Positions 1-7,191 of a stretch of DNA of 7,916 nt are shown here, one piece after another. Origin of the DNA: a virus (taxonomy: Duplodnaviria; Heunggongvirae; Uroviricota; Caudoviricetes); the IMG/VR virus record IMGVR_UViG_2711768056_000001, positions 1-7,916 of that record, one strand, 5' to 3'. The position numbers and the translations under genes were made by a program. The notes beneath the pieces are model-generated. The model was not told the DNA's origin, did not search any database, and was given only the letters and a program-made list of their open reading frames with translations. How positions within the stretch are numbered: position 1 is the first letter of the stretch; every line of letters begins with the position of its first letter.

Positions 1-10
1 ACCAGGATTT

Positions 11-37
11 AGCCTCGCATTTGCGGGGCTTTTTATT
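11..37 (+). terminator. Rho-independent terminator: 8-bp stem AGCCUCGC/GCGGGGCU (one G-U pair), 4-nt loop, then UUUUUAUU
   Basis: Read directly: agcctcgc-attt-gcggggct followed by a T-run. It lies 18 nt upstream of the ORF starting at 56 and is oriented for the + strand (U-tract 3' of the stem). Confidence 0.7.
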
Positions 38-55
38 GCAACAAAGGTAAAGACG

Positions 56-343
56 ATGGATGAAGAATATCGTAAAGACCTGCAACTGTGGTTTGGTCTT
101 ACGCATGCGCCGTTCTGCGTGATGCCGCGAGTATTCATGGAGGCTATGCCGCCAGAATGGCAAGAGAAGATGGCTCAGTTGCTTTTTGAGTATAGCGACA
201 CAATCAAAACGGATGTCTGCGGAGTTCACAGCTGTTTTGTTACTGCCAAAGACGGCAACAACCGCTTTATGAGGATGCCAGAAGATATTCTGAACTATCG
301 TCATCCCCGACGTGAATTCATCGAATCAGTTCTGAAGAAGTAG
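56..343 (+). CDS. Hypothetical 95-aa protein, candidate accessory (moron-like) gene upstream of the packaging genes
   Basis: ATG-initiated ORF on the same strand as the operon, sitting between two hairpins (11..37 and 352..373). Only a weak AAGG about 9 nt upstream as a ribosome-binding site. No family recognised; contains Cys21/Cys55/Cys60 and His17/His58. Confidence 0.5.
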   Translation: MDEEYRKDLQLWFGLTHAPFCVMPRVFMEAMPPEWQEKMAQLLFEYSDTIKTDVCGVHSCFVTAKDGNNRFMRMPEDILNYRHPRREFIESVLKK

Positions 344-351
344 CCATTACA

Positions 352-373
352 AAGCCCATCTACGGGTGGGCTT
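352..373 (+). other. Perfect 7-bp inverted repeat AAGCCCA(N8)TGGGCTT, 9 nt after the stop of ORF 56..343; hairpin without a clear U-tract
   Basis: Read directly; the two arms are exact reverse complements. The downstream sequence gataatg is not T-rich, so it is not a canonical intrinsic terminator. Confidence 0.4.
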
Positions 374-545
374 GATAATGAAACCGGAATTTATTCTGGG
401 AAACCAGTTACGGCAGTACAGCGAAACAACCCAAGCCAGAAAGTGGGGAAATAACACTGGCAGCCACTGAAAGATGAACCTCCTGCCTTATGGCAAAAAA
501 GATTCTTTGTGGTGGCGGACTGATGGAAAGACATCGGTTATTGCA

Positions 546-568
546 GAGACCATTCAATGAGTGGTCTC
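546..568 (+). other. Perfect 7-bp inverted repeat GAGACCA(N9)TGGTCTC in the non-coding spacer; candidate RNA hairpin or protein-binding palindrome
   Basis: Read directly; exact reverse-complement arms, no U-tract following. Confidence 0.4.
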
Positions 569-637
569 GACAATGGCTTATACCCTACACGGGATAACTT
601 AACTGATATCCCTTTTAACGGATAAACGGAGCCAACA

Positions 638-880
638 ATGGCAGAGATTATTCCCATGACTGAAGAACAGAAATTCCAGTTAGAGATTTACAAACTGGTC
701 ATGAACCAGAACGCAGCCGCAGAAGAAGCATTTCAATTCATTGGCACTGACGAGCTGAAGCTTGAGCTATTCAAAATTCACTTCCAGTCAGGTGGCGCTA
801 ATTCGGATATCACGACCCGCACTATCGAAGCGGTGCGTAAATCGAAGGAAGCGTTAGACCTGTTCACTACCGGAGCATAA
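638..880 (+). CDS. Hypothetical 80-aa protein, predicted helical, immediately upstream of terS
   Basis: ATG with a GGAG ribosome-binding site 6 nt upstream. Its stop (878..880) is 2 nt before the terS ATG, and the terS ribosome-binding site (GGAG 871..874) lies inside its 3' end, suggesting coupled translation. Small conserved ORFs occur at this position in P22-like phages (from memory, unverified). Confidence 0.6.
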   Translation: MAEIIPMTEEQKFQLEIYKLVMNQNAAAEEAFQFIGTDELKLELFKIHFQSGGANSDITTRTIEAVRKSKEALDLFTTGA

Positions 881-882
881 AC

Positions 883-1323
883 ATGGCGCGCCCAACGAAG
901 TATCAAGAGGCGTATGCCGAACAGGCACGCAAACTGTGCTTGCTGGGCTATACAGACGCCGAACTTGCTGATTTCTTTGAAGTCAGTGAGTCAACTATTA
1001 ACAAGTGGAAGCTTGATTATCCTAAGTTTTCGGAGTCCATAAAAAAGGGTAAGGCCGTCGCTGATGCAGAAGTTAGTGATCGTCTTTATCAACGCGCTAT
1101 GGGCTTCGTGTCTCCAGACATCGATATTCGTGTTATTGAAAACAGGATTGTCGAAACTCCGCTTGAGAAGTATTACCCGCCTGATACAACAGCTGCCATC
1201 TTCTGGCTTAAGAACCGACAGAAGGATAAATGGCGCGACAAGGTTGATCACGAGCTAACAGGCAAAGACGGCGGCGCAATCCAGATTGAAACATCACCGA
1301 TGAGTACTCTATTCGGAAAATGA
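883..1323 (+). CDS. terS: Terminase small subunit (146 aa) with N-terminal helix-turn-helix-like DNA-binding segment
   Basis: Sits directly upstream of the large terminase, with its stop overlapping that gene's start (ATGA at 1320..1323). The N-terminal segment GYTDAELADFFEVSESTINKWK resembles helix-turn-helix motifs of phage small terminases; size is typical. Confidence 0.8.
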   Translation: MARPTKYQEAYAEQARKLCLLGYTDAELADFFEVSESTINKWKLDYPKFSESIKKGKAVADAEVSDRLYQRAMGFVSPDIDIRVIENRIVETPLEKYYPPDTTAAIFWLKNRQKDKWRDKVDHELTGKDGGAIQIETSPMSTLFGK

Positions 1324-2735
1324 CCTCGATTAATCCTATCTTTGAACCGTTCATTGAGGCGCATCGCTACAAAGTCGCCAAAGGCGGTCGAGGTAGCGGT
1401 AAGTCATGGGCAATTGCGAGGCTGCTTGTTGAAGCGGCGCGTCGTCAGCCAGTGCGTATTCTCTGCGCTCGTGAACTGCAAAACAGTATCAGCGATTCGG
1501 TAATCCGGTTGCTTGAAGACACCATAGAGCGGGAAGGGTATTCGGCTGAGTTTGAAATTCAGCGTTCAATGATTCGTCATCTCGGAACGAATGCTGAGTT
1601 CATGTTCTACGGCATCAAAAACAACCCGACGAAGATTAAATCGCTCGAAGGCATTGATATCTGCTGGGTGGAAGAAGCGGAAGCGGTAACGAAGGAATCA
1701 TGGGATATCCTGATACCAACCATCCGTAAGCCGTTCTCTGAAATATGGGTGAGCTTCAACCCGAAAAACATCCTCGACGATACCTATCAGCGATTCGTCG
1801 TAAACCCTCCTGATGATATTTGCCTGCTGACGGTGAACTACACCGACAACCCGCACTTTCCTGAAGTCCTCCGTCTGGAGATGGAAGAGTGCAAGCGCAG
1901 AAACCCGACACTGTATCGTCACATCTGGCTTGGTGAGCCAGTAAGCGCAAGTGATATGGCAATCATCAAACGTGAATGGCTTGAAGCCGCAACCGATGCG
2001 CACAAGAAACTCGGATGGAAAGCGAAAGGCGCTGTTGTCTCTGCGCATGACCCGTCAGATACAGGACCAGATGCTAAAGGTTATGCATCGCGTCACGGTT
2101 CGGTAGTTAAGCGCATTGCCGAAGGTCTGCTGATGGACATCAACGAGGGTGCTGACTGGGCTACTTCGCTGGCGATTGAAGACGGCGCTGACCATTACCT
2201 GTGGGATGGTGATGGTGTTGGTGCCGGGCTACGCAGACAGACAACGGAAGCGTTCTCCGGCAAGAAAATCACCGCCACGATGTTCAAGGGCAGCGAATCG
2301 CCGTTCGATGAAGATGCACCGTATCAGGCCGGAGCATGGGCTGATGAAGTCGTGCAGGGCGACAACGTTCGCACTATTGGCGATGTGTTCCGCAATAAGC
2401 GAGCGCAATTCTATTACGCGCTGGCTGACAGGCTGTATCTGACATATCGGGCGGTTGTCCACGGTGAGTATGCAGACCCCGACGACATGCTGAGTTTCGA
2501 CAAAGAAGCGATAGGCGAGAAGATGCTGGAGAAGCTGTTTGCAGAACTGACGCAGATTCAGCGCAAATTCAATAACAACGGGAAGCTGGAGCTTATGACT
2601 AAGGTCGAAATGAAGCAAAAGCTCGGGATCCCATCTCCTAACCTGGCTGATGCGTTGATGATGTGTATGCATTGCCCGGAGTCGGCTGCGCAACCCGACT
2701 ATTCCAGTTACTCAATTCCTTGTGGTGTAGGTTGA
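1320..2735 (+). CDS. terL: Terminase large subunit (471 aa), ATPase plus nuclease; resembles the PBSX/Sf6-type (Terminase_3-like) family
   Basis: Walker A GGRGSGKS at residues 22-29 (nt 1383..1406). Walker B-like hydrophobic stretch ending in acidic residues (IDICWVEEAE). Acidic residues in the C-terminal half fit an RNase H-like nuclease. Positioned between terS and portal. Confidence 0.95.
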   Translation: MTSINPIFEPFIEAHRYKVAKGGRGSGKSWAIARLLVEAARRQPVRILCARELQNSISDSVIRLLEDTIEREGYSAEFEIQRSMIRHLGTNAEFMFYGIKNNPTKIKSLEGIDICWVEEAEAVTKESWDILIPTIRKPFSEIWVSFNPKNILDDTYQRFVVNPPDDICLLTVNYTDNPHFPEVLRLEMEECKRRNPTLYRHIWLGEPVSASDMAIIKREWLEAATDAHKKLGWKAKGAVVSAHDPSDTGPDAKGYASRHGSVVKRIAEGLLMDINEGADWATSLAIEDGADHYLWDGDGVGAGLRRQTTEAFSGKKITATMFKGSESPFDEDAPYQAGAWADEVVQGDNVRTIGDVFRNKRAQFYYALADRLYLTYRAVVHGEYADPDDMLSFDKEAIGEKMLEKLFAELTQIQRKFNNNGKLELMTKVEMKQKLGIPSPNLADALMMCMHCPESAAQPDYSSYSIPCGVG

Positions 2736-2736
2736 T

Positions 2737-4935
2737 ATGGCAGAAAAAAAGATGACTGACTGGCATCGCAAGGTGCTGTGCAACTTTGATAATGCCTGGT
2801 CAGCAACGCAGGATATGCGTGAGCAGATTATTGAGGCTCAACGTTTCGTCAGGGTGTCCGGCGCACAGTGGGAAGGTAGCACAAACGCTGGTTACTCATT
2901 TGATGAAGGCAGGTTTGAGCATTACCCGCGATTTGAACTGAATAAGATTGCCCGTGAATGTGATCGCATCATTGGCGAGTATCGACAGAATCGCATCAGC
3001 GTTAAATTCAGGCCTAAGGATGACAAGGCATCGGAAGCGTTAGCCGAAAAAATGAACGGCAAATTCCGCGCTGACTATCAGGAAACATCCGGTGGCGAAG
3101 CGTGTGATAACGCATTTGATGATGCTGTAACGGGCGGATTCGGTTGTTTCCGCATGTGTGCCGATTACGAAGATGAAATGGATCCGAGTAATGAGCAGCG
3201 GCGCATCAGCCTTCTTCCTGTTTACGACCCGGCGACATGCGTCTTCTTCGATCAGGACAGCAAGCAATATGACCGCTCTGATGCTATGTGGGCTATGGAA
3301 ATGTTCTCCATGACGCCTAAAGCGTTCGAGGCTGAATACCCTGATTCCATCGCGGCAAGCCTTTCTCGTGATGACGCTGGCACTCAATATGACTGGTCAA
3401 CGCCAGATGCCATCTATGTTGGACGCTACTACGAAGTTCGCATAGAGAAGGTGAAGCTCACGGCGTGGCGCAACCCTGTCAGCGGAGAAACGGCAATCTA
3501 TGATGAAGAGCAAATCAAAGATATTGTCGACGAGCTAACCGATGGCGCATTCGAACTGATTGGTGAGCGGACAGTGAAGAAACGCCGCGTTTATTGCGGA
3601 CTTCTGTCTGGCGCTGAATGGCTGGAAGAACCGAAGCGTATTCCGGGCGAACATATTCCTCTCATCCCGGTATATGGGCGTCGCTCATTTGTTGATAATC
3701 AGGAGCGAATCGAAGGCCACGCAGCAAAAGCGATGGATGCACAGCGTCTTGAGAACCTGATGGTTTCCATGATTGCAGATAACGCTACTCAGGCTGGCGG
3801 TGATGGCATTCCTGTAGTTGATGTTGACATGATTCCTGGTTCTCTCGCTACTCATTGGGCGGAGCGCAACAAAAAGCGCCCGGCGTTCCTGCCGATGGTA
3901 AGTCTGAAAAACAAAAACGGAGATATTACTGCGCAGGCTCAGGTCAGCAGTTATACACCACCGACACAAATGCCTCCTGCTCTTGCCGGGCTATTGCAGT
4001 ACACCGGAACGGCTATTCAGCAAATTACAGGTGCGTCGCAGCTTGAGAACATGCCGAGCAACGTCGCCACCGATACCGTTGATAGCATTTTTAACAGGAT
4101 GGACACGCAGTCCTATATCTACATGGACAACATGGCTAAATCCATGCGTCGCGCTGGCGTTGTGTGGCTTTCTATGGCGCGTGAGGTCTATGGCAGTGAT
4201 ACGCCGATGCGTATCGTTAATGAGGACGGCAGCGATGACGTGGCGCTGATGACTGGTGAAGTGGTTGACCGTCAGACAGGGCAGGTTATCGCGCTTAATG
4301 ACCTTTCGCAGGGCAACTATGAAGTGACTGTCGATGTCGGTCAGTCGTTCGCTACTCGCCGTGATGCAACGGTTAAGTCGTTACTTTCCATGCTGGCACT
4401 TATCCCACCAGGAACGCCGAAGCACGACCTTGTATCGTCGATGATTCTCGACAATATGGACGGCGAAGGGATGGACGACCTTAAAGAATACAACCGCAAT
4501 CAGTTGCTTCTGTCTGGCGTTATCAAGCCGAGAACGCCAGAAGAGCAGCAAATGGTTGAGCAGGCGAAACAACAACAGGCCAGTCAGCCAGATCCGGCTA
4601 TGGTTGCTGCGCAAGGTCAGCTTCTTGCTGGTCAGGCTGAATTGCAGAAAGCGCAGAACGAACAGGCAGCCATTCAGGTTAAAGCATTCCAGGCACAGAC
4701 TGATGCTCAGGTTGCAGCGGCAAACGTTGTGAAAATCCTCGCATCTGCCGATAGCCAGCAAAAATCTGATATCCGTGAGGCTCTGAAACTGCTCGGACAG
4801 TTCCAGCAACAGCAAGGAGACAATGCCCGTGCTGATGCAGAGCTTGTCCTGAAAAGTCAGGCACAGGGCCATGCACAGCGCATGGACATCAGCAGGATCC
4901 TGCAAAAATCAACTCAGCAACAACCGCAGCAGTAA
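2737..4935 (+). CDS. Portal protein (732 aa), P22 gp1-like, with a long Gln/Ala-rich C-terminal helical extension
   Basis: Starts 1 nt after the terL stop. Size matches the P22 portal (about 725 aa). Recognisable similarity to P22 gp1 motifs (GEHIPLIPVYG core; C-terminal PEEQQ...DPAMV.AQG.LL.GQAEL.KAQN ... ARA.AEL.LK ... QRMDI..ILQ). Confidence 0.93.
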   Translation: MAEKKMTDWHRKVLCNFDNAWSATQDMREQIIEAQRFVRVSGAQWEGSTNAGYSFDEGRFEHYPRFELNKIARECDRIIGEYRQNRISVKFRPKDDKASEALAEKMNGKFRADYQETSGGEACDNAFDDAVTGGFGCFRMCADYEDEMDPSNEQRRISLLPVYDPATCVFFDQDSKQYDRSDAMWAMEMFSMTPKAFEAEYPDSIAASLSRDDAGTQYDWSTPDAIYVGRYYEVRIEKVKLTAWRNPVSGETAIYDEEQIKDIVDELTDGAFELIGERTVKKRRVYCGLLSGAEWLEEPKRIPGEHIPLIPVYGRRSFVDNQERIEGHAAKAMDAQRLENLMVSMIADNATQAGGDGIPVVDVDMIPGSLATHWAERNKKRPAFLPMVSLKNKNGDITAQAQVSSYTPPTQMPPALAGLLQYTGTAIQQITGASQLENMPSNVATDTVDSIFNRMDTQSYIYMDNMAKSMRRAGVVWLSMAREVYGSDTPMRIVNEDGSDDVALMTGEVVDRQTGQVIALNDLSQGNYEVTVDVGQSFATRRDATVKSLLSMLALIPPGTPKHDLVSSMILDNMDGEGMDDLKEYNRNQLLLSGVIKPRTPEEQQMVEQAKQQQASQPDPAMVAAQGQLLAGQAELQKAQNEQAAIQVKAFQAQTDAQVAAANVVKILASADSQQKSDIREALKLLGQFQQQQGDNARADAELVLKSQAQGHAQRMDISRILQKSTQQQPQQ

Positions 4936-5025
4936 TTAACCCATAACGTGCAATGGCTGTCTTTATGAGGCCTGGCACCCTATTGCCTTCCGATGGGCTG
5001 AACATCGAGTAAACAGGGGTAACAA

Positions 5026-5919
5026 ATGGACCAGATGGCAGAAAACACACCAGAAGTTGAAATCGAAACCGATACATCAGAGCAGATTCCTGATGATGTC
5101 GAACTGGCTGAAGAAGTCGAAACAGAAGATGGCAGTAAGTCCTCCGGCGATGATGCAGAGGAAGCTACTGAAACTGATGACGACGAATCAGAACAGGAAT
5201 TCTACTTTGGTGACGAAAAGCTGGATTCGCCAACCAGCGAAGATGGCGCAGAGCATGGACTGGTAAAACACCTGCGCAAGACGATTAAAGAGAAAGACCG
5301 TGAGCTGAAAGAGCTGATGCGTCAGTCTCAGAAACCCGTCGAGCAGCAGCCGGTAATCACTCAACCACCGCGAATGCCAAAACTGGATGATGAGGACATC
5401 GGTTTCGATGAAGAAATCTATCAGCAACGCATGGCTAAGTGGGCAGAGGATAACGGCAAGTACCAGCAACAGGAGATGGATCGCAAGCAGAAGGAGCAGG
5501 CGCTTCAGGCTGCCTATCAAGAGCGATTATCCAAATATCAGCAACGTGTTAAGGCTCTCAAGGTTCCTGGCTATCAGGAAGCAGAACAGGCCGTACTCGA
5601 GGAAATCCCCATCGAGACACAAAACGCGATCCTGTTTGAGTCAGAGAAGCCGGAAATCGTTGTTCTCGCGCTCGGTCGCAACGCTGAACTGCGCAAGCAA
5701 CTGGCAGAAGCTACCAACCCCGTAGCAATTGGTCGTCTGCTGGAACGTATCGAATCGAAGGCCAGGATCATGCCAAAAGCAAAAACCACGGCAGCCACAA
5801 CCCCGACAGTTAAGGGGAGCAACGGCGTAGTAATCAATAACCTCGACAAACTGAAAGCCAAGGCGCTGGAAACTGGTGACTGGACGCCGTATTTCGCCGC
5901 TAAAAAGGCAAAAAAATAA
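5026..5919 (+). CDS. Scaffolding protein (297 aa), P22 gp8-like
   Basis: Lies between portal and coat. Strongly acidic N-terminus, charged helical middle, and a basic C-terminus with a KLKAK motif like the coat-binding C-terminal helix-turn-helix of P22 gp8. Ribosome-binding site AGGGG 5 nt upstream. Confidence 0.85.
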   Translation: MDQMAENTPEVEIETDTSEQIPDDVELAEEVETEDGSKSSGDDAEEATETDDDESEQEFYFGDEKLDSPTSEDGAEHGLVKHLRKTIKEKDRELKELMRQSQKPVEQQPVITQPPRMPKLDDEDIGFDEEIYQQRMAKWAEDNGKYQQQEMDRKQKEQALQAAYQERLSKYQQRVKALKVPGYQEAEQAVLEEIPIETQNAILFESEKPEIVVLALGRNAELRKQLAEATNPVAIGRLLERIESKARIMPKAKTTAATTPTVKGSNGVVINNLDKLKAKALETGDWTPYFAAKKAKK

Positions 5920-5937: not shown

Positions 5938-7191
5938 ATGGCTAACCAATTAGCAAAAGACCTTGAAATCATGTTCGAAAACTACGTTGAAGGCTTTGAG
6001 GCCGCCTGCGTAGTTTCCCGTAACGCTAAAAAATTCCGTCCCAGTGATACCGCAATGCAGCGAGCAGGTGATGTTCTGTATCGTCCGCAGCATTACCACA
6101 TGAACATTGAGGAAGGCCTCGATCTCAGCAGCAAAACGCCAACAGCACTGGTTCAGCGCCTTGTTCCTTCTGTATTCAAGGAGCCGAAAAACATTCTGTA
6201 CACTCTGGATGCGCGTGAAATGCGTGACCCTGAGCATAAAACTGAAGCTGGTCGCGCCGCAGGTATGCGCCTTGCTGCACAGATTGACTCTGACCTGATT
6301 TCCATGGTCACGCAGCGTGCTACTAACGTGATCGCAATGGCTGACTCAACCACTGGTTCACAGGGCCGCGATTTGTGGAACTGTGCGGCAGGTATTGATG
6401 CCACCATGACGGCGATTGGTGTACCGCAGGGTATCAACCGTCGCTCTTTCTGGAACCCCTTCAACTACAAAGACCTTGCTGGCGAGCTTGGTCACCGTGC
6501 CTACGCTCAGGGCGCAACCCTGACAGCATACGAAAAAGCGCAGATCCCTCCGGTTGCTTCCTTTGATAGCTACAAGACCGATATTTCTGGTCGATTACCG
6601 AAAGGAAGCACTGAATCCTTGACAGTATCAGGCCAACCTGAACACAAGGTTGAAGCGAAAGATTCAAATGGTATGCCAGTTGATAACCGACAGGGGACTA
6701 TTACGGTATCTGCATCTGGCTTGCAGGTTGGTGATGCGTTCACCATTGCCGGTGTGAATTCCGTACACCAGATCACAAAAGATACCACCGGTCAACCGCA
6801 GGTATTCCGTGTTCTGGCTGTTAGCGGAACTACCGTAACAATTTCTCCAAAGATTCTCCCTGTTGAAAATACTGATGTTGCGAGTCGTCCATATGCAAAC
6901 GTCGATGCCAAACCGGCAGAATCAGCAGCAATCACCATTCTCAACAAGAACGCAGCACCTGCTAACCTCTTCTGGGCTGATGGTTCTGTTGAGCTGATGT
7001 ACGGCAAACTGGCATTCCCGACAGGTCAGGGTCCACAGGTAATGACAGCAACCACCGAGCAGGGCGCTACGCTGATCATGTCTTATGCCTTCGACCACAT
7101 CAAAGGCGTAACCACTGCTCGTTTCACCACTCTGTACGGTTGCTCTGTACTTGTTCCTGAATATACGGGCATCGTTATTGCCGGGCAGTAA
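5938..7191 (+). CDS. Major capsid (coat) protein (417 aa), P22 gp5-like
   Basis: Similarity to the P22 coat C-terminal region (F.V..V.G..V.I.PK ... YANV ... NILN ... FWAD motif pattern). Directly downstream of the scaffold gene, GGAG ribosome-binding site 8 nt upstream, and followed by a strong terminator. Confidence 0.92.
   Translation: MANQLAKDLEIMFENYVEGFEAACVVSRNAKKFRPSDTAMQRAGDVLYRPQHYHMNIEEGLDLSSKTPTALVQRLVPSVFKEPKNILYTLDAREMRDPEHKTEAGRAAGMRLAAQIDSDLISMVTQRATNVIAMADSTTGSQGRDLWNCAAGIDATMTAIGVPQGINRRSFWNPFNYKDLAGELGHRAYAQGATLTAYEKAQIPPVASFDSYKTDISGRLPKGSTESLTVSGQPEHKVEAKDSNGMPVDNRQGTITVSASGLQVGDAFTIAGVNSVHQITKDTTGQPQVFRVLAVSGTTVTISPKILPVENTDVASRPYANVDAKPAESAAITILNKNAAPANLFWADGSVELMYGKLAFPTGQGPQVMTATTEQGATLIMSYAFDHIKGVTTARFTTLYGCSVLVPEYTGIVIAGQ

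Follow-up and report, generated by a model that had tools for sequence, protein, structure and literature searches.

A 95-residue cargo gene at the lysis-to-terminase junction of a P22-like phage belongs to a widespread phage protein family

The 7,916-nucleotide stretch analysed here (the window) represents late-region DNA from a P22-like podophage of the Lederbergvirus type. Near its left end lies an open reading frame of 95 codons, ORF95, followed after a spacer of 294 nt by a DUF2560 gene and the packaging and head genes (Table 1). The DUF2560 gene, found in the relatives examined, anchors the junction on its right as a conserved element immediately 5' of the small terminase gene. A sequence-only reading had reported ORF95 together with an upstream terminator and a downstream hairpin at 352-373, and all three are present, the terminator with its stem at 11-30 and a T-run to 35.

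Table 1 Features of the window (nucleotide positions) and of the predicted ORF95 structure (residue positions)
Feature	Position	Strand	Remarks
Intrinsic terminator-like hairpin and T-run	11..35	+	stem 11-30; conserved left flank of slot A
Exchangeable cassette (slot A)	38..340	.	Shine-Dalgarno and ORF95; blastn homology breakpoints
Shine-Dalgarno AAGGT	44..48	+	7 nt 5' of ATG-56; read from the sequence
ORF95	56..343	+	ATG start, stop 341-343; 95 aa
Conserved non-coding junction spacer	344..637	+	two further insertion points, empty in the window
Stable hairpin	345..380	+	inner stem 352-373, no U-tract; conserved right boundary of slot A
Candidate small ORF	523..597	+	24 codons; by-eye reading of the sequence
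DUF2560 gene	638..880	+	P22 orf80 / Sf6 gene 67 homologue; Pfam PF10834, E = 1e-43
Small terminase	883..1323		
Large terminase	1320..2735		
Portal	2737..4935		
Scaffold	5026..5919		
Coat	5938..7191		
Predicted short helix	residues 9-12		ORF95 model
Predicted extended conserved segment	residues 13-24		ORF95 model
Predicted helices	residues 25-30, 33-49, 52-55		ORF95 model
Predicted small beta-hairpin	around residues 62-70		ORF95 model
Predicted helices	residues 76-79, 86-92		ORF95 model

Other 95-aa reading frames occur in wrong frames of the window, so that the length of ORF95 by itself is not beyond chance. We nonetheless regard ORF95 as a genuine, translated-type gene under purifying selection because of its conservation, the selection acting on it and its conserved translation-start context. 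Compared with the copy in a prophage of E. coli O104:H4, to which it is 95% identical, ORF95 differs by 9 synonymous and 5 non-synonymous changes, giving a dN/dS of 0.12. The homologues in Sasha and Carvaje, unrelated siphoviruses with 60-63% amino acid identity, keep the translation-start context aaaggtaaaggcgATG; the motif aaaggtaaag(a/g)cgATG is retained, and the DNA further upstream is otherwise unrelated, which supports ATG-56 as the start codon. Escherichia phage HF4s carries a near-identical gene (98.9% amino acid identity), and an index of public assemblies lists the exact ORF95 protein in 1,328 blocks. A comparison of composition, proposed by the sequence-only reading, gave no sign of foreign origin: the GC (0.47), GC3 (0.53) and codon usage of ORF95 are indistinguishable from those of the structural genes.

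The stem of the upstream element consists of 8 bp, including six G-C pairs and one G.U, closed by a 4-nt loop and followed by TTTTTATT, with a folding energy of -15.2 kcal/mol (z = -3.1). This G+C-rich stem-loop and U-run are predicted to form an intrinsic terminator, and the epsilon34 record labels this sequence a Rho-independent terminator, downstream of an annotated PR' and qut. Positions 1-34/37 are 92-100% identical in Sf101, epsilon34, 720R6, Kapi1 and Huey, all of which carry other cargo, and the variants seen preserve the stem, as in the change from U.G to C-G in locus L017. The downstream hairpin has an inner stem of 9 bp including one G.U (352-360/365-373) with a UACG loop, and an outer stem of 5 bp (345-349/376-380); it folds with -20.6 kcal/mol (z = -4.7). 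Kapi1, Huey, Dewey and HK97 share it, again with other cargo. Its commonest variant, C357T, was found in 8 of the 21 copies tallied and preserves the pair as G.U; in a few rarer variants the outer stem is altered or, in HK97, inner-stem pairs are broken, and the copies across loci are too similar for a real covariation test. Because both hairpins are common to phages with different cargo, they form part of the conserved flanks, placing the swapped unit at about 38-340. Thus the description of ORF95 as bracketed by hairpins is right as to their presence, but they belong to the flanks and not to the cassette.

The suggestion that variable cargo sits at this lysis-to-terminase junction was borne out by comparison with relatives, whose homology to the window ends at 34-37 and resumes either at 340 (Kapi1, Huey, HK97 and others) or at 403-410 (Sf101, epsilon34, 720R6 and P22/BTP1). 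Of 203 phage records sharing the flanks (those matching window 1-900), HF4s alone has the gene, and among 5,426 complete E. coli genomes the ORF95 cassette was detected in 72, at 74 places. The same position, from the post-lysis terminator to the conserved spacer, is held in the same orientation by its usual occupant, the anti-repressor-like protein Rha, in Sf101, 720R6, BTP1 and P22 (orf201), by a GIY-YIG nuclease in epsilon34 (gp68) and g341c, by a phrog_872 protein in Kapi1 (Kapi1_043) and Huey, and by gp73 in HK97. These other occupants are larger than ORF95, at 160-240 aa. Kinship with Rha was rejected, as ORF95 gave no Phage_pRha (PF09669) hit at E <= 1 and hhalign against Sf101 Rha returned a probability of 0.07%; nor is there any sequence relationship to the other occupants, HK97 gp73 and Kapi1_043 included. 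The Huey occupants of this slot and of a second one described below are labelled 'anti-CRISPR', a label that we set aside as evidence because PHROGs v4 does not back it and lists both as unknown.

An identical ORF95 protein accompanies three terminase types, in both P22-like and lambda-like prophages. The lambda-like prophages, one of them in O104:H4, share a unit that runs from window position 1 to 378-380, comprising terminator, gene and hairpin, and is always preceded by Rz and a 50-aa ORF. ORF95 is thus very probably a horizontally exchanged accessory gene, occupying the first of at least three slots in a hypervariable lysis-packaging junction. For the mosaicism of lambdoid phages, recombination has been proposed to take place at conserved 'boundary' sequences between modules, and the flanks of slot A fit this picture.

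The two other slots lie in the spacer. Slot B, at 535/537, holds a gene of the gp49/Sf6-gene-66 family in loci L014, L015 and L019 and in Huey, and slot C, at 596/624, holds the pid locus in BTP1/P22. The spacer itself had been named alongside ORF95 as possible novel cargo, which it is not: of the 5,426 E. coli genomes, 2,556 contain the spacer or parts of it, at 3,466 places in all, making it a conserved junction sequence of about half of the complete genomes of this species, and the part at 344-719 is about 95% identical in HK97-like siphoviruses. A search of window 1..1000 against Rfam gave no hit. The candidate small ORF within the spacer runs across slot B as far as the left edge of slot C (596). 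We tentatively regard it as the counterpart of P22 orf25 and of Sf101_0064, a 75-nt CDS at the equivalent place; P22 orf25 likewise falls under the spacer matches.

A consensus scan of both strands of window 1-1400 found no sigma-70-like promoter, compared with 2.1 expected in shuffles, and only 20 nt separate the T-run from ATG-56, which makes ORF95 most likely a passenger of the late operon. RNA polymerase modified by Q or gp23 resists terminators in lambda and P22. ORF95 is probably expressed by late-operon read-through: during lytic growth, Q-modified RNA polymerase would read through the terminator at 11-35 into ORF95, which would have no promoter of its own.

A classical moron, in the Hendrix-Juhala concept, has its own promoter and terminator. 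Like genes of morons and other accessory regions, ORF95 is a variable gene inserted between conserved flanks, patchy, horizontally spread among mosaic relatives and probably dispensable; unlike a classical moron, it has no promoter detected by the consensus scan, and it may also have no terminator of its own, the upstream terminator and the downstream hairpin, which is stable but followed by no U-tract, belonging to the flanks. ORF95 might still be expressed from the prophage and serve superinfection exclusion, defence or lysogenic conversion, as do pid, bor and sieA, given that it is common in prophages, sits at the junction that carries the pid moron of P22 and is isolated by the terminator from upstream transcription. 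We consider this very unlikely in view of the missing promoter-like site, the short distance from terminator to start codon, the orientation with the late operon, unlike that of pid, the absence of any match to PADLOC models at E <= 1 and the homologues in early and replication regions of the isolated phages Stenotrophomonas QDWS359, Pseudomonas Jeremy and Pseudomonas Dolphis. The closest precedent, pid of P22/BTP1, is a small (86 aa), non-essential ORFan moron that acts on the host dgo operon (Cenens et al. 2013, PMC3573128; PMC8835761). It occupies the same junction between the lysis genes and orf80 (DUF2560), and is absent or replaced in related phages. In contrast to ORF95, which is co-oriented with the late operon, pid uses the other insertion point (596/624), runs antisense and has its own promoter and Rho-independent terminator. 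A relationship between the two proteins was rejected, with hhalign of the family profile against BTP1 Pid giving a probability of 0.5%.

The designation of ORF95 as an orphan proved incorrect. Its residues 1-95 match positions 139-230 of the 233-position HMM of PHROG 3527 (E = 1.6e-54, 186 bits), a family that PHROGs lists without function and to which phrog_33008 and phrog_10794 are related. The same conserved pattern runs through the family and ORF95 (WFGL, PR, MP..WQ, LL..Y, NYRHP), with ORF95 representing a minimal stand-alone form that matches the C-terminal part of the profile only. Whereas a single-sequence search recovered 43 relatives, nearly all of 94-105 aa, a profile search recovered 1,880, and 1.84 billion cluster representatives (50% identity), searched exhaustively with HMMER, yielded 1,605 clusters at E <= 0.001, of which 621 reached E <= 1e-10. 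Members are found in isolated phages of Klebsiella, Salmonella, Cronobacter, Vibrio, Pseudomonas, Stenotrophomonas, Acinetobacter and Caulobacter, in genomes of Gamma-, Alpha- and Betaproteobacteria, and in metagenome-assembled genomes labelled Verrucomicrobia, Desulfobacula, Actinomycetota, Methylomirabilota and Parabacteroides. The ORF95 family is thus widespread in phages of several bacterial phyla.

In the family alignment R25, W35 and Y81 are invariant, and the columns at W12, F13, L15, P24, M31, P32, Q36, L42, L43, V62, P75, R82 and P84 are at least 90% conserved; N80 is conserved at 88% and H83 at 75%. The sequence-only reading had noted that C21, C55, C60 and H58 lack a canonical zinc-finger spacing. 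The positions are correct, and the residues are indeed no zinc site: they vary across the family, being conserved in an enterobacterial subgroup only, and none is among the columns conserved at 75% or more. A zinc finger or zinc ribbon was therefore rejected for lack of a conserved Cys/His ligand set across the family.

The ORF95-type domain is nearly always C-terminal; it usually stands alone or else follows N-terminal extensions of 0-320 aa (median 4 aa) that are extremely diverse: among 65 extended members, the largest similarity group has three. By eye, many of the extensions resemble coiled coils. Pfam identified fusion partners in a few of the 65, namely a Lar zinc ribbon in two, DUF4406 in one and NlpC/P60 in one. 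The two Lar fusions join a Lar-type zinc ribbon (PF14354) to the N-terminal side of the domain, unlike ORF95, which has neither a Lar domain nor conserved Cys/His residues. Searches of Pfam with ORF95 (E <= 1), 114 diverse members and the 65 extended members returned no family for the domain itself, no NCBIfam model matches ORF95, and a literature search found no paper naming the ORF95 accessions or PHROG 3527. With Pfam and PHROGs, we likewise agree with the sequence-only reading that no structural or lysis family fits.

Diverged members lie at other lysis-to-terminase junctions, in Morganella and in a different E. coli prophage whose copy is frameshifted, and in Vibrio phage Seahorse a member is located directly 5' of the small terminase gene. 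Elsewhere the surroundings are of other kinds. Salmonella and Klebsiella prophages carry members in early accessory operons near the integrase gene, with Ead/Ea22-like, ParB-like, DndB, PAPS-reductase and methylase genes as neighbours; in Sasha and Carvaje the gene belongs to a divergent small-gene cassette within the head module; and in Stenotrophomonas, Pseudomonas and Acinetobacter phages members adjoin replication genes. Of the neighbours in 34 dereplicated family clusters, none is shared by more than four clusters, the most frequent being lysis genes, HNH endonucleases and terminases. The family has no obligate or conserved partner gene.

These contexts bear on whether ORF95 is instead a late-stage helper that modulates packaging or lysis through the terminase, concatemer protection or lysis timing. 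Such a role would explain its place at the start of the packaging module, where it would be co-transcribed with the late genes, and would suit the Seahorse arrangement and the members flanked by lysis and terminase genes in P22-like, lambda-like, Morganella and HNH-terminase-type prophages. We judge it unlikely, however, given that a single one of the 203 related phage records has the gene, that the identical protein occurs with three unrelated terminase types, that many members lie in early or replication regions or near an integrase, and that the junction is a general cargo hotspot also home to unrelated genes.

AlphaFold produced a moderate model of ORF95 with a 47-sequence alignment (pLDDT 77) and a confident one with a 114-sequence alignment (pLDDT 89.7, pTM 0.72), in which the protein is predicted to form a compact single alpha+beta domain. 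ORF95 has a mass of 11.4 kDa and a pI of 5.9 and is predicted to be soluble. The homologues in Sasha and Solent are annotated as transmembrane proteins, an assignment that we rejected for ORF95: the maximum 19-residue Kyte-Doolittle mean is 0.95, and the flagged 'membrane' segment holds the invariant P24-R25 within the confidently modelled (pLDDT ~90) single domain. No PDB sequence scored below E = 0.37 in a profile search, and Foldseek of the model against BFVD retrieved only its own homologues. No sequence or fold similarity was detected to known anti-defence proteins with solved structures, including anti-CRISPRs, Ocr/ArdA-type mimics and nucleotide sponges.

Across the family the domain is near-neutral (median pI 6.1, net charge about -1), which sets it apart both from typical, basic DNA binders and from strongly acidic mimics of DNA. 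This charge, together with the lack of any detected HTH or other DNA-binding family or fold and of a consistent replication partner, speaks against ORF95 being a nucleic-acid-directed accessory factor for replication, recombination or regulation. In favour of that role, the gene adjoins DNA polymerase, primase/helicase, replication initiator, ParB-like and HNH or endonuclease VII genes in several distant phages; on balance we hold it to be quite unlikely.

The confident fold prediction also argues against ORF95 being a chance reading frame or the C-terminal piece left by decay of a longer protein. That idea could draw on the restriction of the PHROG match to the C-terminal part of the profile, on the frameshifted E. 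coli copy and on the longer gene calls in some databases, which span 114-172 aa (114 aa in HF4s, 172 aa in P0054) and cross the terminator. These calls are gene-calling artefacts, because their extra residues translate the terminator itself. Homologues are for the most part separate proteins of about 95-105 aa, so that a fragment of a longer gene was rejected, and with the low dN/dS and the conserved Shine-Dalgarno and ATG context a non-functional ORF95 is effectively refuted.

Phage proteins of host takeover or counter-defence are usually small, soluble and near-neutral, show no enzymatic signatures, are patchily distributed with recent horizontal spread between phage types, and reside in accessory regions (for the general framework see bioRxiv 10.1101/2023.04.06.535777). 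ORF95 has this profile, and we therefore favour a stoichiometric binder. ORF95 would thus be a stand-alone protein acting by binding rather than catalysis, with a contact surface likely formed by the conserved polar residues R25, Q36, N80, Y81, R82 and H83. It would bind some conserved macromolecule of the host (or of the phage) stoichiometrically and would be a dispensable factor of the host-takeover or counter-defence type. Action alone by binding is in keeping with the lack of a recurrent neighbour, of an enzymatic, defence or curated family match and of a transmembrane segment, and with the compact single domain predicted by the model. Accessory regions of enterobacterial phages have been reported to be rich in counter-defence genes (bioRxiv 10.1101/2023.04.06.535777), and a counter-defence context is suggested by the accessory runs with Ead/Ea22, methylase and DndB-like genes and by the rare Lar fusions.

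Several observations count against this explanation. Expression timing is not uniform in the family, with a late junction here and early operons in other phages; Lar fusions make up just 2 of 65 extended members; and the family motif was not found in the supplementary sequence files of two accessory-gene screens. In addition, the small cluster of invariant R/Y/H/N residues might just as well serve catalysis or ligand binding, and the adjacency to lysis and terminase genes in several diverged clusters could mean a late-stage role rather than a hotspot effect. We therefore regard the binding or counter-defence mechanism as possible, and the explanation as a whole, in which an exchanged cargo gene is a late passenger encoding a host-takeover or counter-defence binder, as having somewhat less than an even chance. 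More doubtful is the specific proposal that ORF95 represents, in its minimal form, a phage domain so far unrecognised and of novel fold, which would neutralise a broadly conserved component of bacterial immunity or housekeeping and so make up a new class of counter-defence or host-takeover protein.

A variable cargo gene in a hotspot of the lambdoid late region is a kind of feature that is already well known, with pid, only a few hundred bases from ORF95's slot, as the experimental precedent. What is mildly notable here is the size and breadth of a family that has no curated domain or structural analogue. An 'orphan ORF' becomes an exchangeable cargo gene with precise boundaries, lodged in a hotspot of several slots that about half of the complete E. 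coli genomes possess, and new mechanisms of host takeover and counter-defence are now emerging from such conserved, unannotated families. ORF95 is small, soluble and cheap to test, and it occurs in pathogen lineages that include E. coli O104:H4 prophages; should it have no phenotype, it would be one more hypothetical phage protein. Regardless of that outcome, the junction map, with its three slots and conserved boundary hairpins, is useful for the annotation of lambdoid prophages.

Comparison of the gene occupying slot A, the first of at least three cargo insertion points in the lysis-to-terminase junction, with its homologues suggests that this cassette moves as DNA. The Sashavirus homologue (Sasha 4988-5251) aligns with window 43-306 at 69% nucleotide identity over a stretch that includes the ribosome-binding site of ORF95, the 95-aa cargo gene; this level of identity suggests that P22-like phages, which are podoviral, and Sasha-like phages, which are siphoviral, have exchanged the cassette at the DNA level. 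At least one ORF95-type copy is decaying, that of E. coli 2017C-4173W12 (positions 4013-4299 of the compared locus), which is 83% identical and annotated as frameshifted. The prophage that carries this copy is of another type, having a GH19 endolysin and a terminase region of the HNH type.

Several database entries for ORF95-type genes differ in their start or description. Starts have been set upstream, through the terminator, giving 114 aa in HF4s (2499-2843) and 172 aa in the homologous protein P0054, and these upstream starts are probably mis-annotated. The label 'membrane protein' carried by the homologue in the Sasha and Solent records was unsupported by either hydropathy or the predicted model. 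In the neighbouring lysis genes, the HF4s record designates a 50-aa ORF after Rz as the o-spanin, and the Sf101 and epsilon34 records have Rz1 embedded within Rz.

Downstream of ORF95, we located two further insertion points and several smaller features.

Features mapped in and around the junction (window coordinates)
Feature	Position	Strand	Details or basis
Slot B, second cargo insertion point	535/537		Inserts in relatives; empty in window
Slot C, third insertion point	596-624		pid insert in P22 and BTP1
Candidate 24-codon ORF	523-597		Within conserved spacer; reading by eye
Terminator-like hairpin	479-500	minus	Inside spacer; 9-bp stem, z = -3.4
Imperfect direct repeat	264-292 and 370-398		29 nt, 72% identity

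Relatives carry at slot B either a gene of the gp49/Sf6-gene-66 family (PF13876) or other ORFs. The slot A and slot B genes of Huey (1996-2496 and 2731-3111) bear an unverified 'anti-CRISPR protein' label in the record; PHROGs v4 gives their families, phrog_872 and phrog_322, as function unknown. Directly beside slot B lies a near-palindrome (540-556/558-574) with 17-nt arms, 82% complementary, and a 1-nt gap. The slot C insert is 629 nt long, lies between the counterparts of 596 and 624 and bears pid, an ORFan moron, in antisense; the window shows the same 'empty' state at this slot as reported for PS34.

By eye, the candidate ORF looks like a counterpart of P22 orf25 and Sf101_0064. Instead of a gene, it may be what is left of one, because the epsilon34 record likens the matching stretch to the N-terminus of ST64T orf118. 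The terminator-like hairpin points away from the DUF2560 gene and may have arisen by chance, as two such sites were found against 1.5 expected. The first copy of the direct repeat falls close to the ORF95 3' end; the second begins inside the downstream hairpin, in its 3' arm, and extends beyond the hairpin. The repeat may reflect chance or may have been left by the recombination event that brought the cassette in. Beyond the spacer, the small terminase (883-1323) is identified by PHROG 309 alone (E = 1.6e-67), with no Pfam match reaching the gathering threshold and weak matches to HTH, Terminase_5 and GP3_package.

Window 344-719, made up of the spacer and ~80 nt from the start of the DUF2560 gene, is ~95% identical in the HK97-like siphoviruses HK97, mEp234, HK140, mEpX2 and HK446, where the counterpart is flanked by gp73 and the HNH gene gp74. 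This junction DNA is common to different virion types.
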